Virus record (IMG/VR): IMGVR_UViG_2648501299_000001
Coordinates: 1 to 16,106 of that record
Length of the DNA stretch: 16,106 nt
From: a virus
Lineage: Duplodnaviria; Heunggongvirae; Uroviricota; Caudoviricetes
Reading direction: 5' to 3' (one strand)
This document shows positions 3,005 through 11,176 of this stretch, in pieces. A program made the position numbers and the translations under genes. Positions within the stretch are counted from its first letter, which is position 1. Each line of letters opens with the position of its first letter. The notes beneath the pieces were generated by a model. The model made no database searches. It had not been told where the DNA came from and saw only the letters and a list, made by a program, of their open reading frames with translations.

Positions 3005-3786
3005 GCTGCCACCTTCTGCTCAGTGGCTTTCTGTTTCAGGAATCCAAGAGCTTTCACTGCTTCGGCCTGTGTCAGTTCTGACGATGCGCGAATGTCGCGG
3101 CGAAATATCTGGGAACAGAGCGGCAATAAGTCGTCATCCCATGTTTTATCCAGGGCGATCAGCAGAGTGTTAATCTCCTGCATGGTTTCATCGTTAACCG
3201 GAGTGATGTCGCGTTCCGGCTGACGTTCTGCAGTGTATGCAGTATTTTCGACAATGCGCTCGGCTTCATCCTTGTCATAGATACCAGCAAATCCGAAGGC
3301 CAGACGGGCACACTGAATCATGGCTTTATGACGTAACATCCGTTTGGGATGCGACTGCCACGGCCCCGTGATTTCTCTGCCTTCGCGGGTTTTGAATGGT
3401 TCGCGGCGGCATTCATCCATCCACTCGGTAACGCAGATCGGATGATTACGGTCCTTGCGGTAAATCCGGCATGTGCAGGATTCATTGTCCTGCTCAAAGT
3501 CCATGCCATCAAACTGCTGGTTTTCATTGATGATACGGGACCAGCCATCAACGCCCACCACCGGAACGATGCCGTTCTGCTTGTCAGGGAAGGCGTAAAT
3601 TTCTTTCGTCCACGGATTAAGGCCGTACTGGTTGGCGACGATCAACAATGCGATGAACTGCGCATCGCTGGCATCACCTTTAAATGCCGTCTGGCGAAGA
3701 GTGGTGATCAGTTCCTGTGGGTCGACAGAATCCATGCCGACACGTTCAGCCAGCCTCCCTGCCAGCGTTGCGAGTGCTGTACTCAT
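3001..3786 (-). CDS. bet: Lambda-type single-strand annealing protein (Red beta)
   Basis: 261 aa protein ([85 protein letters not shown]...) matches lambda Bet from memory. Same length and gene order. Confidence 0.95.
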
Positions 3787-3791
3787 CCGTT

Positions 3792-4088
3792 TTATACCTC
3801 TGAATCAATATCAACCTGGTGGTGAGCAATGGTTTCAACCATGTACCGGATGTGTTCTGCCATGCGCTCCTGAAACTCAACATCGTCATCAAACGCACGG
3901 GTAATGGCTTTTTTGCTGGCCCCGTGGCGTTGCAAATGATCGATGCATAGCGATTCAAACAGGTGCTGGGGCAGGCCTTTTTCCATGTCGTCTGCCAGTT
4001 CTGCCTCTTTCTCTTCACGGGCGATCTGCTGGTAGTGACGCGCCCAGCTCTGAGCCTCAAGACGATCCTGAATGTAATAAGCGTTCAT
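3792..4088 (-). CDS. gam: RecBCD inhibitor Gam (98 aa, GamS-length form)
   Basis: [60 protein letters not shown]...[10 protein letters not shown] matches the C-terminal 98 aa of lambda Gam. ATG at 4088 with an AGGAG RBS 7 nt upstream. The reading frame is not open further upstream, so the long form is absent. Confidence 0.9.
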
Positions 4089-4370: not shown

Positions 4371-4639
4371 AAAAACTCCTGCCCGTAAGCTGGGCTGCTG
4401 AACATATAAAGACTTCTGCGCGTATTCAGGCGGTGGATGGCCGCCGGTTGTCATAACTAAGCCGCCTCGTTGAAGCGACTGAGGTATGAAGTGTTGAGTT
4501 GATTTCAGCTGGTCACACCGACGTTCACGCGTCCGCTTCACCCCTCGCACTCCCCGGAGCCTGCTGAAATTCAAGCTGCGGATCTAAGCGGTCATCGCAA
4601 CGGTGAATCAGGTGATTGCCGTATCGTTGTGTTGTTGCG

Positions 4640-4700
4640 ATATGGTGATAATAGCTATTGCTATTGATGATATCAATACTTATTGCTATTGCTAGATGTG
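4640..4700 (-). promoter_or_regulatory. Candidate leftward early promoter (pL-like) with operator-like repeats (OL)
   Basis: On the minus strand: TTGATA (plus 4671-4676), 17 nt spacer, TATTAT (plus 4648-4653). Copies of the TTGCTATTG motif at 4658-4666 and 4683-4691 overlap and flank the promoter; the same motif recurs next to cI/cro (6764-6772, 6789-6797). Confidence 0.45.
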
Positions 4701-4813
4701 TTTTGATATTAAATGTTTGATAGCAAAAAGAATTAATTTTGTGACTTGCATCGCATAGCGATAACTGAAGTGAGGTGTGGTGGTTTTTTGGACGGTATGA
4801 GTTATGAGGGGGA

Positions 4814-4850
4814 GGAAAAGAAAACCCGGCGCGGTTGCCGGGGGCTTTTT
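4814..4850. terminator. Bidirectional intrinsic terminator closing the cI-cassette transcript
   Basis: CCCGGC-gcggtt-GCCGGG hairpin (4825-4842) flanked by an A/T run on each side: GGCTTTTT on the plus strand, TTTTCTTTTCC on the minus strand. Sits 25-60 nt downstream of the stop (4875) of the minus-strand 305 aa gene. Confidence 0.65.
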
Positions 4851-4874
4851 ATAGTGTGTTAGGTAAATAGAATA

Positions 4875-5792
4875 TCAGCCTACTGTTCTAAAGATGAGAA
4901 GTGGTGTCATCCCATACGAATCACTTCCTCTACCAGCTTGTACCTTGACCATATCCAGGAAGGATTGTAATCCTGACTTGAGATCGTGTTCAGGGAAATC
5001 AAGAGGGTTATTGATATTCTGATCTTGTACAGAATCTGGCAAGGCATCAATCAATCCAATGACATGCCAGGTACCCGGTATGGTGCCACCATATTTTAAG
5101 GCTAAGTCATCAGGATTAATTGTTAAATATTCTTTATCAATAGACATCCACATCAGGTTGCCATTCTCATCAATAAAATCAACCTGGAGGATGTTGGGAA
5201 CGATATTAATGAGTTTCTTAACTACACCAATGGTAAGCCCAGGAGATATCTCAATTTCATCTGGGGTGAGTTTCCCTTTAAGCTTCGCTTTGGCTTTTGG
5301 GGGAAGGTTGACCGTGTTTAATTGTGCTTGGGCTATCTCACCAAAAATAGGCATAATTTTCTGAATAGTTGACACATCAAAAATGCGCATTTTTCCAACA
5401 GAATGAACAACTGAACCAAGATTCTCACCATTAAGTCCAGTTTTAATCATTCCTGCTTCATCTAATTTATCGAGAAAATTAATTGGTAATGACCATGAAG
5501 CGTCGAAAGTTTTCTCTTGCGAATGTGTTAAGGCGTCGTCAGTCCCCACTTTTCCTTTAAGAATCTTGACGCTTAATTCAACGGATTTATTAGATTTATC
5601 TGTGTCAGAAGTAGTTTGTTTTACGCTCGTCACTACACCAGCATTGTGAAGCTGGGCTGTGAGGGAGCTAACGCGTACACGGTCTATGTAAAGAAAATCA
5701 AATAGTGAATCTGTGCTTTGTTGTTCGAGCTCCATTTTGCCAATCCTCTCTAAATTTTTCTTTTTCCTCGCGAATTCTTTTTTGCTTTTCAT
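4875..5792 (-). CDS. Hypothetical protein in AT-rich insert downstream of cI (rexA/rexB-equivalent position); 305 aa, or 286 aa from ATG 5735
   Basis: Long ORF with visibly lower GC than the flanking phage genes. The ATG at 5735 has a GAGAGG RBS about 9 nt upstream; the ATG at 5792 has a weaker context. Same strand as cI and followed by the terminator at 4814-4850. No motif recognised. Confidence 0.6.
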   Translation of the reverse strand: MKSKKEFARKKKNLERIGKMELEQQSTDSLFDFLYIDRVRVSSLTAQLHNAGVVTSVKQTTSDTDKSNKSVELSVKILKGKVGTDDALTHSQEKTFDASWSLPINFLDKLDEAGMIKTGLNGENLGSVVHSVGKMRIFDVSTIQKIMPIFGEIAQAQLNTVNLPPKAKAKLKGKLTPDEIEISPGLTIGVVKKLINIVPNILQVDFIDENGNLMWMSIDKEYLTINPDDLALKYGGTIPGTWHVIGLIDALPDSVQDQNINNPLDFPEHDLKSGLQSFLDMVKVQAGRGSDSYGMTPLLIFRTVG

Positions 5793-5877
5793 CTATCTCA
5801 TCGAAAAGTTGAATGAGTTCATCCACACCATGTGAAGGCGTCTCTGATTTCACTTTCTTCAAAATTTTCTTGAACAT
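5698..5877 (-). CDS. Possible small charged protein (59 aa) between cI and the 305 aa gene
   Basis: ATG at 5877 (MFKKILKKVKSETPSHGVDELIQLFDEIDEKQKRIREEKEKFREDW...). No clear RBS, and it overlaps the 5' end of the 305/286 aa ORF in another frame. Could be real or an AT-rich artefact. Confidence 0.25.
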   Translation of the reverse strand: MFKKILKKVKSETPSHGVDELIQLFDEIDEKQKRIREEKEKFREDWQNGARTTKHRFTI

Positions 5878-6026
5878 GATGATTTTCCATAGAGAACTGA
5901 CTGTACAAATTATGTTCTCTTTGTCACATGAAAGCAACTGTACCAGGACAAGCAAAGTGTGTCTCCAAAGATCGCTTTAATCACATGTTACAGCTTTTTT
6001 GTCAGCTTTGGTCCCATGAAGACGCT

Positions 6027-6719
6027 TTACCCATGCTTCCTGTATGTCTGCGGCATGCTCCCAATAACCTTACCGAAGATGAACACCCGGTTCATCTCGT
6101 CTTTCTCGATCGGGTCCCACGGCGAGTAGCTCTTGTTATCAGAGATAACCAGCAGCTTATCCTTCATCATTTGAAGACGTTTTACATGGGCAGTGTCGTC
6201 GTACAGAAACGCATAGATGCCATCACCGTCGAAAGATTTAACAGTGATATCAACGAACAGCAGGTCACCTGGTTCGATCGTTCCTGACATGCTGTCACCA
6301 CGCACGTTAATGATGCGGATATTTTCCGCCTTCCTGCCATCGAACATGTGACGAGCATCGTCAAACGAGTATTCAACCGAGCGTAGAACTTCTACAAACT
6401 CACGGTTGATTACACCCGGCCCGGCACTGACTTCCATATCAAGAACGTCAATTTTGAAGTATTTGGAATGGCTGACAGCAGGCTTCCCTGATTGTTGACC
6501 GTCATTTCTCATCGGGCCTATGCCTGATGAGAGCCATTCTGTTCGAACACCCAATGCATTAGCTATTTCAACAATTTTTGTTGAGCCGCGCGCGTTGCCG
6601 CTTGTCAGTCTCCAGATTGTGGGTTGAGCTACGCCAGACGCCTTTGCAAGAGCGCCTTGAGACATTCCAGATTGTTCCATCGCTAGGTTTAAGCGATCAG
6701 CAAGAGTTTCTTTTTTCAT
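6027..6719 (-). CDS. cI: cI-like prophage repressor (HTH-XRE N-terminal domain plus LexA/S24-type autopeptidase domain)
   Basis: N-terminal HTH (LADRLNLAMEQSGMSQGALAKASGVAQPTIWRL), an Ala-Gly candidate cleavage site (SAGPG), and S24 catalytic motifs GDSM (Ser) and VKRL (Lys). First ATG at 6719 has no SD, consistent with a leaderless or short-leader pRM-type transcript; the ORF-track start at 6755 is TTG. Divergent from the cro-like gene. Confidence 0.85.
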   Translation of the reverse strand: MKKETLADRLNLAMEQSGMSQGALAKASGVAQPTIWRLTSGNARGSTKIVEIANALGVRTEWLSSGIGPMRNDGQQSGKPAVSHSKYFKIDVLDMEVSAGPGVINREFVEVLRSVEYSFDDARHMFDGRKAENIRIINVRGDSMSGTIEPGDLLFVDITVKSFDGDGIYAFLYDDTAHVKRLQMMKDKLLVISDNKSYSPWDPIEKDEMNRVFIFGKVIGSMPQTYRKHG

Positions 6720-6755
6720 AAGTTTTAATTTATACGCTTGCGTATTGATGGTCAA

Positions 6756-6829
6756 AACACGTTTTGCTATTGCTTGGATTAATACGCATTGCTATTATTC
6801 ATTCATTGCAATACCAATAGGAATTGATA
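6756..6829. promoter_or_regulatory. Divergent cI/cro control region (OR-like operators, candidate pR and pRM)
   Basis: Plus strand: TTGCTT (6770-6775), 17 nt spacer, TATTAT (6793-6798) as a candidate pR. Minus strand: TTGACC then about 16 nt then ATAAAT just upstream of the cI ATG as a candidate pRM. TTGCTATTG/TTGCTATTA motifs at 6764-6772 and 6789-6797 overlap the -35 and -10. Confidence 0.5.
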
Positions 6830-7057
6830 ATGACAAATCAAACCATTCAACTCGCAATCAGTATTACAGGTAGTCAAAAACGACTGGCAGATCTATGCGG
6901 TGTAGCCCAACCCACAGTTTGGCGTTGGCTACACGGTGGCGGAATTGATGCCCGCTATGTAATGAAAATTGTCTCAGCCACTGGTGGAAAGATTAAACCA
7001 GCAGATATTCGTCCCGACCTCGCACCATTGTTTAACGCGAGTAATTCTGCCGCCTAA
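6830..7057 (+). CDS. cro: Cro-like HTH regulator (YdaS-like family)
   Basis: 75 aa from ATG 6830 (AGGA 8 nt upstream); the ORF-track start at 6824 is TTG. HTH signature (SQKRLADLCGVAQPTVWRW). First gene transcribed divergently from cI. Confidence 0.65.
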   Translation: MTNQTIQLAISITGSQKRLADLCGVAQPTVWRWLHGGGIDARYVMKIVSATGGKIKPADIRPDLAPLFNASNSAA

Positions 7058-7081
7058 ACTGCGGCGTTAACTGATAAGGCA

Positions 7082-7627
7082 ATGACTATGCAACCACTTA
7101 CATACCAACAGACTAGCGGATTTAGCCCAACTGCGGTGATAAATCGTTCTCAAACAAAACAGGTGCCAGGCCACGAAAAAATCCGTGATGCCGTCCGCGC
7201 CTGGTCGGCTGTAGATAATCAGGATGTCGTTGCCACACTCATTGTGAATGAGTATCGGGAGCAGGGCGGCGGCACCATCGATTTCCCTGATGATGTCAGC
7301 CGTGCACGCCAGAAGCTGTTCCGCTTCCTCGATAACAAATTCGATTCTGAAAAATACCGAAATAACGTGCGTGAACTGACCCCGGCAATTCTGGCGGTAC
7401 TACCGCTGGAATATCGCGGTTACCTGGTTGAGCAGGATAGCTTCATGGCTAGGTTGGCTGAAATGGAAAAGGAACTCAGCGAGGCAAAACAGGCTGTCAT
7501 TCTCAACGCACCACGCCACCAGAAACTGAAGGAAATTAGTGAAGGTATTGTGTCGATGTTTCGTGTGGACCCAGATCTGGCTGGTCCATTGATGGCGATG
7601 GTTACTACCATGCTGGGGGCGATATGA
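7082..7627 (+). CDS. CII-like regulator (YdaT-like family)
   Basis: 181 aa. Segments IVNEYREQGGG and ELTPAILAVLPLEYRGYL resemble Rac YdaT-family proteins as I recall them. Sits at the cII position between cro and O. Confidence 0.55.
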   Translation: MTMQPLTYQQTSGFSPTAVINRSQTKQVPGHEKIRDAVRAWSAVDNQDVVATLIVNEYREQGGGTIDFPDDVSRARQKLFRFLDNKFDSEKYRNNVRELTPAILAVLPLEYRGYLVEQDSFMARLAEMEKELSEAKQAVILNAPRHQKLKEISEGIVSMFRVDPDLAGPLMAMVTTMLGAI

Positions 7628-7713
7628 CAGGTTCAGAAATGGCGAAAGCCGGTCTGCTGGAACAGAACCGACTTTCAGGTGCAAATCGTAACACACTCAT
7701 TGCGGGAGGAATT

Positions 7714-8643
7714 ATGGCAAACACTGCTGAGATATTCAATTTTCCTGTGCCGGATGCGGCACAAAAGGAGCCGCGCGTGGCAGATCTCGATGATGGTTAT
7801 ACGCGCATTGCAAATGAGTTGCTGGAAGCTGTAATGCTGGCCGGATTAACACAGCACCAGCTTCTGGTCTTCCTGGCTGTCATGCGCAAAACATATGGCT
7901 TTAATAAAAAACTGGATTGGGTGAGCAACGAGCAACTTTCCGAGTTGACCGGGATATTGCCGCACAAGTGTTCTGCTGCAAAAAGTGTTCTGGTAAAGCG
8001 TGGGATTTTTATTCAGAGCGGGCGGAATATCGGCATCAATAATGTGGTCAGTGAATGGTCAACATTACCCGAATCAGGTAAGAAAAATAAAGTTTACCTG
8101 AAAGAGGTAAATTTACCTGAATCAGGTAAGAAAAGTTTACCCAAATCAGGTAAAGGCGTTTACCCGAATCAGGTAAACACAAAAGACAAACTAACAAAAG
8201 ACAATATAAAACCTTTTTCGTCCGAGAATTCTGGCGAATCCTCTGACCAACCAGAAAACGATCTTCCTGTGGTGAAACCAGATGCTGCAATTCAGAGCGG
8301 CAGCAAGTGGGGGACAGCAGAAGACCTGACCGCCGCAGAGTGGATGTTTGACATGGTGAAGACCATCGCGCCATCAGCCAGAAAACCGAATTTTGCAGGG
8401 TGGGCTAACGATATCCGCCTGATGCGTGAACGTGACGGACGTAACCACCGCGACATGTGCGTGCTGTTCCGCTGGGCATGCCAGGACAACTTCTGGTCCG
8501 GTAACGTGCTAAGTCCGGCCAAACTCCGCGACAAGTGGACCCAGCTCGAAATCAACCGTAACAAGCAACAGGCAGGCGTGACAGCCAGCAAACCAAAACT
8601 CGACCTGACAAACACAGACTGGATTTACGGGGTTGATCTATGA
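7714..8643 (+). CDS. O: Replication initiator O (lambda O family), containing ori iterons
   Basis: ATG at 7714 with GGAGG 5 nt upstream; the ORF-track start 7624 overlaps the CII-like gene. The N-terminal domain resembles lambda O (VADLDDGYTRIANELLEA ... RKTYGFNK). The gene carries iterons encoding LPESGKK repeats, then an AT-rich segment. ATGA overlap with P. Confidence 0.85.
   Translation: MANTAEIFNFPVPDAAQKEPRVADLDDGYTRIANELLEAVMLAGLTQHQLLVFLAVMRKTYGFNKKLDWVSNEQLSELTGILPHKCSAAKSVLVKRGIFIQSGRNIGINNVVSEWSTLPESGKKNKVYLKEVNLPESGKKSLPKSGKGVYPNQVNTKDKLTKDNIKPFSSENSGESSDQPENDLPVVKPDAAIQSGSKWGTAEDLTAAEWMFDMVKTIAPSARKPNFAGWANDIRLMRERDGRNHRDMCVLFRWACQDNFWSGNVLSPAKLRDKWTQLEINRNKQQAGVTASKPKLDLTNTDWIYGVDL
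8065..8213. repeat. Replication origin: four 18 bp iterons plus one degenerate copy, followed by an A/T-rich tract
   Basis: TTACCCGAATCAGGTAAG (8065-8082), TTACCTGAATCAGGTAAG (8113-8130), TTACCCAAATCAGGTAAA (8137-8154), TTACCCGAATCAGGTAAA (8160-8177), with a degenerate copy near 8094-8110. Each is an inverted repeat TTACC...GGTAA. Followed by acacaaaagacaaactaacaaaagacaatataaaacc (8178-8213). Confidence 0.85.
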
Positions 8644-9341
8644 AAAACATCGCCGCACAGATGGTTAACTTTGACCGTGAGCAGATGCGTCGGATCGCCA
8701 ACAACATGCCGGAACAGTACGACGAAAAGCCGCAGGTACAGCAGGTAGCGCAGATCATCAACGGTGTGTTCAGCCAGTTACTGGCAACTTTCCCTGCGAG
8801 CCTGGCTAACCGTGACCAGAACGAACTGAACGAAATTCGCCGCCAGTGGGTTCTGGCTTTCCGGGAAAACGGGATCACCACAATGGAACAGGTTAACGCT
8901 GGAATGCGCGTAGCCCGTCGGCAGAATCGACCATTCCTGCCATCACCCGGGCAGTTTGTCGCCTGGTGCCGGGAAGAAGCATCCGTTACCGCCGGGCTGC
9001 CAAACGCCAGCGAGCTGGTTGATATGGTTTACGAGTATTGCCGGAAACGTGGCCTGTATCCGGATGCAGAGTCTTATCCGTGGAAATCAAACGCGCACTA
9101 CTGGCTGGTTACCAACCTGTATCAGAACATGCGGGCCAATGCGCTGACTGATGCGGAATTACGGCGCAAGGCTGCCGATGAACTGGCCTGTATGACAGCG
9201 CGAATTAACCGTGGTGAGGCGATACCTGAACCAGTAAAACAACTTCCTGTCATGGGCGGTAGACCTCTAAATCGTGCACAGACTCTGGCGAAGATCGCAG
9301 AAATCAAAGCTAAGTTTGGGCTGAAAGGAGCAAGGGTATGA
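8640..9341 (+). CDS. P: Replication protein P (DnaB helicase loader)
   Basis: 233 aa protein (MKNIAAQMVNFDREQMRRIANNMPEQYDEKPQVQQVAQIINGVFSQLLATFPASLANRDQNE...) matches lambda P from memory with only a few substitutions. Confidence 0.95.
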   Translation: MKNIAAQMVNFDREQMRRIANNMPEQYDEKPQVQQVAQIINGVFSQLLATFPASLANRDQNELNEIRRQWVLAFRENGITTMEQVNAGMRVARRQNRPFLPSPGQFVAWCREEASVTAGLPNASELVDMVYEYCRKRGLYPDAESYPWKSNAHYWLVTNLYQNMRANALTDAELRRKAADELACMTARINRGEAIPEPVKQLPVMGGRPLNRAQTLAKIAEIKAKFGLKGARV

Positions 9342-9631
9342 CGGGCAAAGAGGCAATTATTCATTACCTGGGGACTCATAAGAACTTCTGTGCGCAGGAC
9401 GTTGCCGCGGTAACAGGCGCAACCGTAACCAGCATAAATCAGGCTGCGGCTAAAATGGCGCGGGCAGGAATCCTGGTCGTTGATGGTAAGGTCTGGCGAA
9501 CGGTGTATTACCGGTTCGCTACCAGAGAAGAACGGGAAGGAAAGGTGAGCACGAATCTGATTTTTAAGGAGTGTCGTCAAAGTGCCGCGATGAAGCGGGT
9601 GTTGATGGTTTGGGGGAGGGTAGGGTATTGA
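9338..9631 (+). CDS. ren: Ren (Rex-exclusion relief protein)
   Basis: MTGKEAIIHYLGTH...VTSINQAAAKMARAGILVVDGKVWRTVYYRFATREEREGK matches lambda Ren from memory. ATGA overlap with P. Confidence 0.9.
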   Translation: MTGKEAIIHYLGTHKNFCAQDVAAVTGATVTSINQAAAKMARAGILVVDGKVWRTVYYRFATREEREGKVSTNLIFKECRQSAAMKRVLMVWGRVGY

Positions 9632-9723: not shown

Positions 9724-10536
9724 ATGATTTTTATTAGTCATAATTATAAAGACAAAGCTTTCGTTGGGTATATTGCAGATAAAATTGCAGATATATATGG
9801 CAGGGATAACGTATTTTATGATTCGTGGTCAATTCAGCCTGGTGAAGGGATTATTGAACGAATGAATGATGGAATCGAATCCGTTAAAATTTTCTTTTTC
9901 TTTGTTACAAAAAATAGCCTTAAGAGTGATATGGTGTCTTTAGAATGGCAGAATGCACTTATGAAAGCCGCCACTGGAGATGTTAAATTCATTGCTATAC
10001 GTTGTGATGAATCACCTATGCCTGCACTTCTTACTCAAAAAGTGTATTTGGACCTTTATACAAATGGTATAGATGTAGTGATAGCACAAATGAATGATAT
10101 TATCTCTGGTAAAAGCACTTATAAACCTCAGGATGAATTATTCTCCAATCTTTCATATGACTTTAAAACAGAATCCAATAAAGTAATAGTTAGGGTTTCC
10201 GCTGATCATTTTAGCGAGGTTACCGCTGACTTTTTGTTCTTATTTACTAATAAATTAAAGGATAATGAATTAAGATATAATGTATTAGGTGAAAGTGGTT
10301 TTATCCAAGGTTTCCGTTCAGACTATAAACTAAGCACGGGTGAAGTGTTTAGCGCACAAATGGTTGCATTAATGCATGGTCTTAAACCAAAAATTCATTT
10401 GACTGTGGAGTTTTGGCTTGATTCAGGAGATGAACTTATTCTCGCACATGTTATGAGTAAAACATCAACAGATCAGTACACGACCATACCATACAAGAAA
10501 AAAACAGATTTTAGCGGCTTTAACATGAAATTCTAA
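9724..10536 (+). CDS. TIR-domain protein (N-terminal TIR-like domain, uncharacterised C-terminal domain); AT-rich insert
   Basis: N-terminus MIFISHNYKDKAFVGYIADKIADIYGRDNVFYDSWSIQPGEGIIERMNDGIESVKIFFFFVTKNSLKSDMVSLEWQNAL follows the TIR pattern: FIS(H/Y)xxxD box, W.D..I.PG, hydrophobic strand then S..S, and a conserved Glu in SLEW. The C-terminal ~150 aa are not recognised. Markedly AT-rich codon usage. Flanked by non-coding DNA on both sides. Confidence 0.6.
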   Translation: MIFISHNYKDKAFVGYIADKIADIYGRDNVFYDSWSIQPGEGIIERMNDGIESVKIFFFFVTKNSLKSDMVSLEWQNALMKAATGDVKFIAIRCDESPMPALLTQKVYLDLYTNGIDVVIAQMNDIISGKSTYKPQDELFSNLSYDFKTESNKVIVRVSADHFSEVTADFLFLFTNKLKDNELRYNVLGESGFIQGFRSDYKLSTGEVFSAQMVALMHGLKPKIHLTVEFWLDSGDELILAHVMSKTSTDQYTTIPYKKKTDFSGFNMKF

Positions 10537-10570
10537 AATTGATTTTCCATAATCAAACCGCCATACTTGT

Positions 10571-10720: not shown

Positions 10721-11176
10721 GTGAACCTCCCACAAGATGGTATCAAATTGCATCGCGGTAACTTCACCGCTATCGGTCGGCAGATCCAGCCTTATCTGGA
10801 GGACGGCAAATGCTTTCGCATGGTGCTTAAACCGTGGCGCGAGAGACGCAGTCTTTCCCAGAATGCACTCAGCCACATGTGGTACAGCGAAATCAGTGAA
10901 TACCTCATCAGCAGGGGTAAAACGTTCGCCACTCCAGCTTGGGTAAAAGATGCTCTCAAACACACATATCTCGGTTATGAAACCAAAGACCTGGTTGATG
11001 TCGTAACCGGTGATATCACCACTATCCAGTCGTTACGCCATACCTCCGATCTTGATACCGGAGAGATGTATGCCTTCCTGTGTAAGGTTGAAGCCTGGGC
11101 GATGAATATTGGCTGCCACCTGACTATTCCGCAGAGCTGCGAGTTCCAGCTGCTGCGCGACAAGCAGGAGGCGTAA
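10721..11176 (+). CDS. ybcN: YbcN/NinB-position protein (DLP12 ybcN-like)
   Basis: 151 aa. GTG start at 10721 with GGAGG 6 nt upstream. Sits upstream of ninE as in DLP12-type nin regions. Family assignment is from recalled gene order and length, not verified. Confidence 0.55.

Follow-up and report, generated by a model that had tools for sequence, protein, structure and literature searches.

The window, by which we mean the whole stretch of 16,106 bp analysed here, carries a short repeated sequence on both sides of a putative immunity region: TTGCTATTG at 4658-4666, 4683-4691 and 6764-6772, and TTGCTATTA at 6789-6797. Direct reading and pattern search place these copies where the preliminary description of the locus had put them. 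The pattern TTGCTATTR that covers both forms occurs four times, always on the plus strand and nowhere else in the window, for a mean chance expectation of 0.38 copies; four or more were obtained in 1 of 200 dinucleotide-preserving shuffles. The question raised by this locus is what these 9-mers are part of, and which proteins would read them. The answer that we propose, with a high degree of confidence, is that they belong to the operators of a lambda-type lysis/lysogeny switch, in the form of 16-bp dyads at OL and OR.

Genes and promoters of the immunity region

The genes and signals on which the argument depends are the following.

6027-6719, minus strand: cI repressor, 230 aa, with HTH_3 and Peptidase_S24 domains
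6830-7057, plus strand: Cro, 75 aa, YdaS type, recognition helix AQPTVWRW
4648-4676, minus strand: predicted promoter pL, -35 TTGATA (4676-4671), 17-bp spacer, -10 TATTAT (4653-4648), predicted start at about 4641, leftward
6727-6755, minus strand: predicted promoter pRM, -35 TTGACC (6755-6750), -10 TAAATT (6732-6727), predicted start at about 6720
6770-6798, plus strand: predicted promoter pR, -35 TTGCTT (6770-6775), 17-bp spacer, TGc (6790-6792), -10 TATTAT (6793-6798), predicted start at about 6805
4825-4842: two-way intrinsic terminator closing the cI-cargo operon, conserved in relatives; it is not an operator

The cI and cro genes are divergent and are separated by the OR3, OR2 and OR1 dyads described below. 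The N-terminal domain of cI, whose nearest solved structure is the 434 repressor (E = 1.6e-5 to 1e-4), is a helix-turn-helix with the recognition helix AQPTIWRL at about residues 31-38, and the translation further reads an Ala99-Gly100 cleavage site and the Ser143/Lys180 pair of the S24 LexA-like C-terminal domain. Residues 10-57 of cI are 40% identical to Cro, and the recognition helix AQPT(I/V)WR is common to the two proteins in near-identical form. The cII position is occupied by a YdaT-type protein; no N gene was recognised, and an Rfam scan of the window gave no match. The ST104 annotation "similar to HK022 cI" was rejected, the HK022 cI being only 40% identical and the HK022 OR region being devoid of the sites of the window.

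The three promoters are consensus-based predictions. pL has 10/12 consensus matches in the promoter scan, its hexamers are conserved in relatives, and its geometry mirrors that of pR. The latter, which falls under the -35 threshold of the scanner, was read directly from the sequence; its -10 and the TTG of its -35 are conserved, and the remainder of the -35 varies. Both pRM hexamers are invariant in relatives. The predicted pRM start lies one base before the cI ATG (6719), so that the cI mRNA is predicted to be leaderless, and no Shine-Dalgarno sequence is visible upstream of this ATG.

The operator unit and its sites

The predicted functional unit is a 16-bp two-fold-symmetric inverted repeat, AATASS-N4-SSTATT. 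The 9-mer corresponds to its right half-site with the two spacer bases that precede it and a single base of flank. The consensus of the sites is AATASS-(M)A.T(K)-SSTATT. The most constrained bases are A2-T3-A4, which the two halves place about 11 bp apart, a distance compatible with a helix-turn-helix dimer that reaches into two consecutive major grooves on the same face of the DNA. The sites, from left to right, are listed here.

4650-4665: OL1, AATAGCTATTGCTATT, perfect dyad; 4 bp into the pL -10; contains the 9-mer 4658-4666 as its right part
4675-4690: OL2, AATACTTATTGCTATT; 25 bp from OL1 and 2 bp into the pL -35; right part is the 9-mer 4683-4691
4695-4710: OL3, GATGTGTTTTGATATT; weaker, 20 bp from OL2, degenerate in this lineage
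4719-4734: candidate OL4, GATAGCAAAAAGAATT; weaker, 24 bp from OL3; good left half, variant right half nGAATT
6731-6746: OR3, TATACGCTTGCGTATT; on the pRM -10 and spacer; no 9-mer
6756-6771: OR2, AACACGTTTTGCTATT; 25 bp from OR3, adjoining the pRM -35 and 2 bp into the pR -35; right part is the 9-mer 6764-6772
6781-6796: OR1, AATACGCATTGCTATT; 25 bp from OR2 and 4 bp into the pR -10; right part is the 9-mer 6789-6797
6810-6825: candidate OR4, AATACCAATAGGAATT; 29 bp from OR1, inside the transcribed pR leader

Five sites are strong (OL1, OL2, OR3, OR2 and OR1), neighbours in each cluster being exactly 25 bp apart, and the OL and OR clusters are 2,081 bp (about 2.1 kb) apart, with OL to the left, at pL. 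The overlap geometry is mirror-image at the two early promoters, the sites taking in 4 bp of each -10 and 2 bp of each -35; OR1 in addition contributes the TGn of the extended pR -10. It had been proposed that every 9-mer overlaps a predicted -35 or -10 element. This holds for both OR copies, which lie on the pR -35 (6770-6775) and the pR -10 (6793-6798), but not for the OL copies, which stand beside the pL hexamers (4648-4653 and 4671-4676); it is the full 16-bp sites that overlap the latter. A search for further copies of the motif, suggested in the preliminary description, returns no additional 9-mer and leaves OR3 unseen, a site without 9-mer whose core ATACGC-TT-GCGTAT is a perfect palindrome.

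The remaining sites are less regular. Only the right half-site of OL3 (GATATT) is recognisable in the window; the same position is occupied in many relatives by the perfect palindrome AATAGCAATTGCTATT. No third OL site is found exactly 25 bp beyond OL2, the alignment of OL haplotypes giving 20 bp as the spacing of the family. The right halves of OL4 and OR4 deviate from the consensus, and these two candidates belong to a conserved variant class with ATAGC or ATACY as left half and nGAATT as right half, OL4 upstream of pL and OR4 over the cro ribosome-binding site. The right half of OR4 overlaps the cro Shine-Dalgarno sequence, and OL4 sits within the segment that is swapped in heteroimmune relatives.

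The significance of the sites was evaluated with an independent half-site matrix made solely from Klebsiella, Salmonella, Kluyvera, Citrobacter and Raoultella relatives, the window's own sites being left out. Over the 16-kb window, the five strong sites are the top five (15.2-18.5 bits) and OR4 is the sixth (11.2 bits), as against 0.1 sites in shuffled sequence at the same threshold. OL1, which is in register across 59 OL haplotypes, reaches 18.1 bits with the matrix made from distant relatives only. The loose pattern AATAGC-N4-GCTATT, with up to three mismatches, is not enriched in the whole window (11 matches for 7.25 expected); the statistical argument is accordingly carried by the stricter matrix and by the position of the sites.

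Conservation across relatives

In more than 100 related prophages from six enterobacterial genera, the half-site bases are almost invariant and the spacers are free to vary; across nine lineages, operators and promoter hexamers stand out as invariant blocks separated by variable spacers. The IMG/VR sample comprises 112 loci and 50 ungapped OR haplotypes, which are homologous loci and whose counts are not independent events. Off-consensus cells amount to 0.7% in the half-sites of OR1 and OR2, versus 4.3% in the central 4 bp and 29% in free spacer (50 OR haplotypes). OR3 was the search pattern for this set and its invariance there is uninformative, but it is identical in 9/9 independently collected relatives. 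On the left side, all four OL sites are in register in the 59 haplotypes, an alignment whose anchoring on the OL4 block is partly circular. The ATAC core of candidate OR4 is retained in 33/35 haplotypes with variable flanks, and the conservation of its right half may simply be that of the cro ribosome-binding site.

These alignments also bear on two further elements of the preliminary description. The imperfect palindrome ATTGATgatATCAAT is present at 4663-4677 as claimed, but as a separate operator it dissolves into an accident of the OL1 flank and of the pL -35 next to OL2: its left arm reads ATTGGT, ATTAGT or ATTGGC in closely related E. coli haplotypes and also changes in other genera, and its right arm consists of the pL -35 and the margin of OL2. 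The tandem TTGCTA-TTGCTA can be discarded as the unit, since its second copy is, at OR, the variable pR -35 (TTGCTT, TTGTTA, TTGATT, TTGCCT and others) and, at OL, shows no conservation.

Natural module swaps and immunity type

Recombinant relatives separate the two domains of the repressor. In PhiR5_1, the cI C-terminal domain is 100% identical to that of the window and the N-terminal domain 53%; in K. grimontii, the corresponding values are 91% and 51%. Both carry a different Cro and, at the same OL and OR positions, a different dyad, ACAAC-N4-GTTGT. A heteroimmune module with a different dyad has a fourth site over the cro Shine-Dalgarno sequence, equivalent to OR4. The reciprocal combination is found in Kluyvera georgiana, whose cI shares 41.5% identity with that of the window in the C-terminal domain and 96% in the N-terminal domain, and in which all the sites are kept. 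The operator sites thus track the DNA-binding N-terminal domain of cI together with Cro, and not the C-terminal domain of cI. This two-way dissociation in natural recombinants argues for operators, cI DNA-binding domain and Cro constituting one exchangeable immunity module. The central idea with which the locus was first described, namely operators of a cI-like repressor at pL and at pR/pRM setting the immunity specificity, is upheld by this comparative evidence.

The N-terminal domain of cI is 100% identical to that of the E. coli phages 4A7, Perceval and PhiR30_1 and 90% identical to that of the Salmonella P22-like phages ST104, SE1 and BTP1. The OR and OL sites of ST104, 4A7 and PhiR30_1 have the same positions and spacing as in the window, OR3 being identical and the others differing at a few positions. 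ST104, SE1, ST160, BTP1, 4A7, Perceval and PhiR30_1 share the immunity type of the window and differ from it in virion modules and in the cargo between cI and pL. In the epsilon34 genome paper, ST104 figures as a repressor specificity type of its own, defined by sequence only (PMC2629481). We propose that the switch of the window is a standard lambdoid operator system of the ST104/BTP1/4A7 immunity type, a type likewise defined by sequence alone.

The comparison with known lambdoid immunity types that had been recommended thus has a divided outcome: the ST104/BTP1/4A7 type corresponds, whereas the lambda, P22, CP-933P, 434 and epsilon34 consensuses do not. The lambda, P22 and CP-933P operator consensuses have no match with up to two mismatches anywhere in the window, and neither the 434 (ACAA-N6-TTGT) nor the epsilon34 pattern is matched exactly at OL or OR, their looser matches not being clustered on the sites. 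Literature searches with the literal operator sequences and for ST104 or BTP1 operators found nothing relevant, and the searchable literature yielded no paper defining the operators of these phages and no published binding, footprint or transcription-start data for this immunity type.

Alternative readings of the repeated blocks

Three other readings of these blocks have to be weighed. In the first, the operators are real but read by one regulator only or by another factor, for instance the consensus sites by cI and GGAATT-type variants by Cro. The conservation at both OL4 and OR4 of a variant class with the right half nGAATT speaks in its favour, yet cI and Cro have almost the same recognition helix (AQPTIWR in the former, AQPTVWR in the latter), and both proteins are replaced along with the sites in the swapped modules; we consider this division of labour improbable.

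According to the second reading, which appears very improbable to us, the conserved blocks would be nothing more than the promoter elements through which RNA polymerase uses pL, pR and pRM, and their dyad symmetry would be incidental. The strong sites do all overlap a predicted -10 or -35 element, and an AT after GCTATT yields the -10 TATTAT. But symmetric conservation reaches well beyond the hexamers, for example in the left halves of OR1, OR2 and OL2, and the pR -35 is itself variable over its last four positions, where 25% of the cells differ among the IMG/VR OR haplotypes. Moreover, heteroimmune relatives with the same flanks exchange the blocks in place for another dyad, together with the cI N-terminal domain and Cro, which promoters alone would not need.

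Finally, that the direct repeat TTGCTATTG or the TTGCTA-TTGCTA tandem is itself the unit, read by a direct-repeat-recognising protein in the manner of P2-type C repressors or of lambda CII (TTGC-N6-TTGC), is scarcely credible: four identical or near-identical 9-mers in one orientation and two TTGCTATTGCT tandems are indeed present, but OR3, identical in the nine independently collected relatives, has no 9-mer, conservation is equal in left and right half-sites, the TT preceding GCTATT changes in relatives (TC, TA, AA, TG), the second TTGCTx is variable, no exact copy of the CII-type pattern lies at OL or OR, and the window's own cII analogue is of the YdaT type, whose characterised homologue recognises an inverted repeat with another sequence (PMC9986795). 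The YdaT operator TTGATT-N6-AATCAA was also tried as the source of the motif and rejected, its sequence being different and its one-mismatch copy over the cro ATG not being conserved in relatives.

Discussion

The model that we favour is the repressor/Cro switch built on 16-bp dyads. The sites are symmetric and regularly spaced, they overlap the predicted promoters, and they are conserved and co-vary with the DNA-binding domain; by analogy with lambda and 434, they would be bound cooperatively and in a defined order, with activation of pRM and looping between OL and OR. The cI dimers at OR1 and OR2 and at OL1 and OL2 would block the early operons by lying over the -10 of pR and pL and the margin of their -35. 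At OR2, directly against the pRM -35, cI could activate its own leaderless transcript. The occupation of OR3, by Cro first or by surplus cI, would shut pRM, and Cro, with almost the same recognition helix as cI, should read the same sites. The SOS-triggered self-cleavage of cI at Ala99-Gly100 would release the repression.

This organisation resembles that of lambda by its divergent cI and cro, its three dyads lying between these genes and overlapping pR and pRM, its second cluster at pL about 2 kb away, and its repressor, in which an HTH N-terminal domain is joined to a C-terminal domain of the LexA-like S24 type, with its Ala-Gly site and Ser/Lys pair. Further points of likeness are the pRM transcript of cI, predicted to be leaderless in the window, and the variable cargo slot between cI and pL, where lambda carries rexAB. 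It differs from lambda by sites of 16 bp with the half-site AATASS, the lambda consensus being absent, and by a regular spacing of 25 bp, whereas the lambda operators are spaced by 24, 23 and 20. It also differs by a Cro that is a YdaS-type all-HTH protein homologous to the N-terminal domain of cI, by a YdaT-type protein in the cII position with no recognised N gene, and by conserved candidate fourth sites at both clusters. With 434 it has in common a repressor and a Cro that share one HTH fold and similar recognition helices, and an A/T-rich operator centre; but the 434 operators are 14 bp long, the recognition-helix residues are QPTxWR in the window and QQSxxQ in 434, and the 434-like dyad ACAAC-N4-GTTGT belongs to the heteroimmune PhiR5_1 and K. 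grimontii, not to the window.

The CP-933P cryptic prophage of E. coli O157:H7 (PaaR2, YdaS, YdaT) has a leaderless repressor gene (PMC8630535, PMC9986795), four evenly spaced palindromes in the repressor-ydaS intergenic region and further operators at the pL analogue; DNase I footprints are available for this switch (PMC8630535). The window shares with it the YdaS-type Cro, the YdaT-type CII analogue, evenly spaced dyads in the repressor-cro interval with more at pL, and a leaderless repressor gene, predicted as such in the window. On the other hand, the CP-933P half-site consensus GTTTAGTAA is absent from the window, the repressor role is held by PaaR2 in CP-933P and by a cI-type protein with a Peptidase_S24 domain in the window, and the CP-933P cargo is a toxin-antitoxin pair. 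Could four sites per side, rather than three, be an architecture shared by the YdaS/YdaT-type lambdoid switches? OL4, OR4, the fourth site of the heteroimmune module and the four palindromes of CP-933P (PMC8630535) would point in this direction, and we regard it as a possible, if rather doubtful, generalisation. If so, a roadblock just downstream of pR, or a further anchor for OL-OR looping, would be conceivable roles of the fourth site.

In conclusion, the window would contain an ordinary repressor/Cro switch from an E. coli prophage of lambda-like type, the binding specificity of this switch being one that we did not find described in the searchable literature; conceptually, it adds one further specificity to a well-understood kind of switch. 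The module is widespread: the segment comprising the cI N-terminal domain, OR and cro, taken at a minimum of 95% identity, occurs in 13% of complete E. coli genomes (723 of 5,426), and the immunity module is also present in Salmonella P22-like phages, including BTP1 of the epidemic ST313, and in prophages of Klebsiella, Kluyvera, Citrobacter and Raoultella. The operator positions and their promoter overlaps are precise targets for footprinting and reporter assays. The defined operators also delimit the cargo slot that lies between cI and pL, the content of which differs among relatives and includes toxin-antitoxin genes. The definition of the operator AATASS-N4-SSTATT would allow homo- and hetero-immunity among such prophages to be predicted from sequence.

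Predicted operator sites and promoters

The 9-mer repeated on both flanks of the immunity region, which the preliminary description proposed as a binding site of the cI-like repressor, belongs to a larger unit. Sequence reading and a pattern search place TTGCTATTG at 4658-4666, 4683-4691 and 6764-6772 and TTGCTATTA at 6789-6797, as that description had it; the search found no further copy of either in the window, and shuffled sequences contain 0.38 copies on average and reach four in 1/200. Each 9-mer is the right-hand portion of a 16-bp inverted repeat (AATASS-N4-SSTATT), namely operator positions 9-16 and one flanking base. OR3 shows the same symmetry without the 9-mer, and was overlooked for that reason. 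The predicted operators at the leftward promoter pL (OL) and between the divergent cI and cro genes (OR) are the following.

4650-4665: OL1, strong site, AATAGCTATTGCTATT
4675-4690: OL2, strong site, AATACTTATTGCTATT
4695-4710: OL3, of which only the right half is kept in the lineage of the window
4719-4734: OL4, candidate site, GATAGC-N4-nGAATT, conserved throughout the 59 OL haplotypes
6731-6746: OR3, strong site, TATACGCTTGCGTATT
6756-6771: OR2, strong site, AACACGTTTTGCTATT
6781-6796: OR1, strong site, AATACGCATTGCTATT
6810-6825: OR4, candidate site, AATACC-N4-GGAATT, at a distance of 29 bp from OR1 in almost every locus

The strong sites are spaced by exactly 25 bp, centre to centre, in both clusters, and in many relatives OL3 is a perfect palindrome, AATAGCAATTGCTATT. 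The right half of OR4 coincides in part with the Shine-Dalgarno sequence of cro, and may owe its conservation to this. The predicted promoters are closely interwoven with these sites.

4676-4671 (-35, TTGATA) and 4653-4648 (-10, TATTAT), minus strand: pL, promoter scan, 10/12 matches
6755-6750 (-35, TTGACC) and 6732-6727 (-10, TAAATT): pRM, promoter scan
6770-6775 (TTGCTT), 17-bp spacer, TGc, 6793-6798 (TATTAT): pR, read from the sequence, its -35 being too weak for the scanner to call

OL1 reaches 4 bp into the pL -10 and OR1 likewise 4 bp into the pR -10, OL2 covers 2 bp of the pL -35 and OR2 2 bp of the pR -35, so that the layout at pL exactly mirrors that at pR; OR2 also abuts the pRM -35. 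The predicted pRM start, near 6720, lies one base ahead of the cI ATG (6719), before which there is no Shine-Dalgarno sequence; a leaderless cI mRNA, like those of lambda and CP-933P (for the latter, PMC8630535), is therefore predicted.

The geometry had been read as a direct TTGCTA tandem accompanied by a separate imperfect palindrome, and neither element withstands comparison. The second TTGCTx is the pR -35 at OR, where it varies (TTGTTA, TTGATT, TTGCCT and others), and it is unconserved at OL. The palindrome ATTGATgatATCAAT is present at 4663-4677; its left arm differs between even closely related haplotypes of E. coli, and its right arm consists of the pL -35 and the first bases of OL2. 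The preliminary interpretation was broadly right, and the geometry is now resolved.

Conservation of the predicted operators

With a half-site matrix built from relatives in Klebsiella, Salmonella, Kluyvera, Citrobacter and Raoultella only, the window's own sites being left out, the five strong sites take the first five places among all 16-mers in the 16-kb window (15.2-18.5 bits). The sixth is OR4 (11.2 bits), at a threshold where shuffles yield 0.1 sites. By information content the half-site reads A1 A2 T3 A4 S5 S6, with A2 and A4 invariant, and central positions 8 and 9 are always A or T; the flanks are poor in information, which sets the site length at 16 bp.

Across nine lineages the invariant OR blocks are the pRM -10 with OR3, the pRM -35 with OR2, OR1 with the pR -10, and ATAC...GGAAT, separated by variable spacers; the OL alignment behaves in the same way. 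Scanning IMG/VR for the OR3 16-mer gave 120 loci, 112 of them genuine. In 50 ungapped OR haplotypes, OR3 being left out of the figures because it had served as search pattern, 0.7% of cells are off consensus in the OR1/OR2 half-sites, 4.3% in the central 4 bp, 25% in the last four positions of the pR -35 and 29% in the free spacer. The ATAC core of OR4 is kept in 33/35 haplotypes, with about 30% of cells off consensus in the flanking positions, and the four OL sites stand in register at 25, 20 and 24 bp in 59 haplotypes.

Immunity specificity

The proposal that these sites define the immunity specificity is supported by natural swaps, in which they track the cI N-terminal domain and Cro. In PhiR5_1 the flanks are window-like and the cI C-terminal domain is 100% identical, the N-terminal domain being only 53% identical, with the recognition helix SQAAIQK versus AQPTIWR in the window; a different Cro goes with it, and at both OL and OR the DNA is replaced. 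A K. grimontii prophage follows the same pattern (C-terminal domain 91%, N-terminal domain 51%). Both of these heteroimmune relatives carry a 434-like dyad, ACAAC-N4-GTTGT, at the equivalent positions, with spacings of 24 and 23 bp; there are two copies at OL and three at OR, and a fourth site lies over the Shine-Dalgarno sequence of cro.

3253-3321 and 5877-5968 of the PhiR5_1 locus (L005): ACAAC-N4-GTTGT dyads
2948-2985 and 5699-5790 of the K. grimontii locus (L011, reverse complement): ACAAC-N4-GTTGT dyads

Kluyvera georgiana offers the converse, as the C-terminal domain is only 41.5% identical, the N-terminal domain 96%, and every site is kept. The sites therefore follow the cI DNA-binding domain and Cro. 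The recognition helix AQPT(I/V)WR is common to cI and Cro, so both should read the same sites.

Gene context and known systems

The window belongs to a lambda-like prophage of E. coli, and its immunity flanks are 95-98% identical to those of the phages PhiR30_1, PhiR68_2, 4A7 and Perceval.

3792-4088, minus strand: gam
4875-5792, minus strand: cargo ORF, DUF6414, 305 aa
6027-6719, minus strand: cI, HTH_3 and Peptidase_S24 domains
6830-7057, plus strand: cro, YdaS-type
7082-7627, plus strand: YdaT-type cII analogue
7624-8643, plus strand: replication gene O

In lambda, the slot between cI and pL holds rexAB. Here (4875-5955, minus strand) it is occupied by the DUF6414 protein and by a small ORF that overlaps it (5698-5955). 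PADLOC and NCBIfam gave no confident match for either, and for the small ORF only a marginal one in PADLOC (PDC-S46, E = 0.0038). The cargo differs in relatives: an ASCH-domain protein, HipA/HipD, GevT/GevA, a ParA-like protein, or an ORF whose annotation notes similarity to a protein of phage 933W. The cargo operon is separated from OL by a two-way terminator (4825-4842), a GC-rich hairpin that has T-runs on both strands and is conserved in relatives from Klebsiella and Salmonella. In the interval from OL4 to this terminator, several relatives encode a rightward ORF of about 68 aa that is missing in the E. coli lineage.

In the interval from pL to kil (pL leader, 4545-4641, minus strand), no gene for an N-like antiterminator was recognised. 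At its 5' end the predicted pL transcript has a hairpin that is closed by an 8-bp perfect inverted repeat (4594-4601/4634-4641); the fold is only weakly better than shuffles (z = -1.6), and the window has no Rfam match.

A TIR_2-domain ORF of 270 aa (9724-10536, plus strand, E = 8.5e-20) is flanked by a ren-position ORF without Pfam match, named by the position of Ren in PhiR30_1 (9338-9631), and by a weakly NinB-like ORF below Pfam's threshold (10721-11176); it may be nin-region cargo that serves in anti-phage defence. Beginning 3 nt past its stop, TTGATTTTCCATAATCAA (10539-10556) perfectly matches TTGATT-N6-AATCAA, the footprinted CP-933P YdaT operator consensus (PMC9986795), and may serve as a binding site for the YdaT-type cII analogue. 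A one-mismatch copy lies over the cro ATG (6824-6841) and is unconserved in relatives.

The operator consensuses of lambda, 434, P22, CP-933P and epsilon34 are absent at OL and OR. The 434 repressor is the closest solved structure to the cI N-terminal domain, and the Cro resembles those of Xfaso1 and XPH1. Among characterised switches that have YdaS and YdaT partners, the nearest is that of CP-933P, whose four evenly spaced palindromes are confirmed by footprinting (PMC8630535). The cI N-terminal domain is 100% identical in the E. coli phages 4A7, Perceval and PhiR30_1 and 90% identical in Salmonella ST104, SE1, ST160 and BTP1; ST104 was classed, by sequence only, as a repressor type of its own (epsilon34 genome paper, PMC2629481). 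We found no published description of these operators in the searchable literature. The module (cI N-terminal domain, OR and cro; 6500-7060) is present at an identity of at least 95% in 723 of 5,426 complete E. coli genomes, nearly always as a single chromosomal copy.

Proposed switch

By analogy with known switches, cI dimers on OR1/OR2 and OL1/OL2 would keep pR and pL blocked. From OR2, cI could activate pRM, which the occupation of OR3 would shut. Cro would act on the same sites. The RecA-stimulated cleavage of cI at Ala99-Gly100 would result in prophage induction; Ser143 and Lys180 are present. OL2 and OR2 are 2,081 bp apart in the window; in relatives the distance runs from 916 to 3,076 bp (median 2,241), a range compatible with a putative looping. 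The operator system belongs to a well-known kind of switch, and the possible four-site architecture, with OL4 and OR4, is the sole part of it that might go beyond routine.
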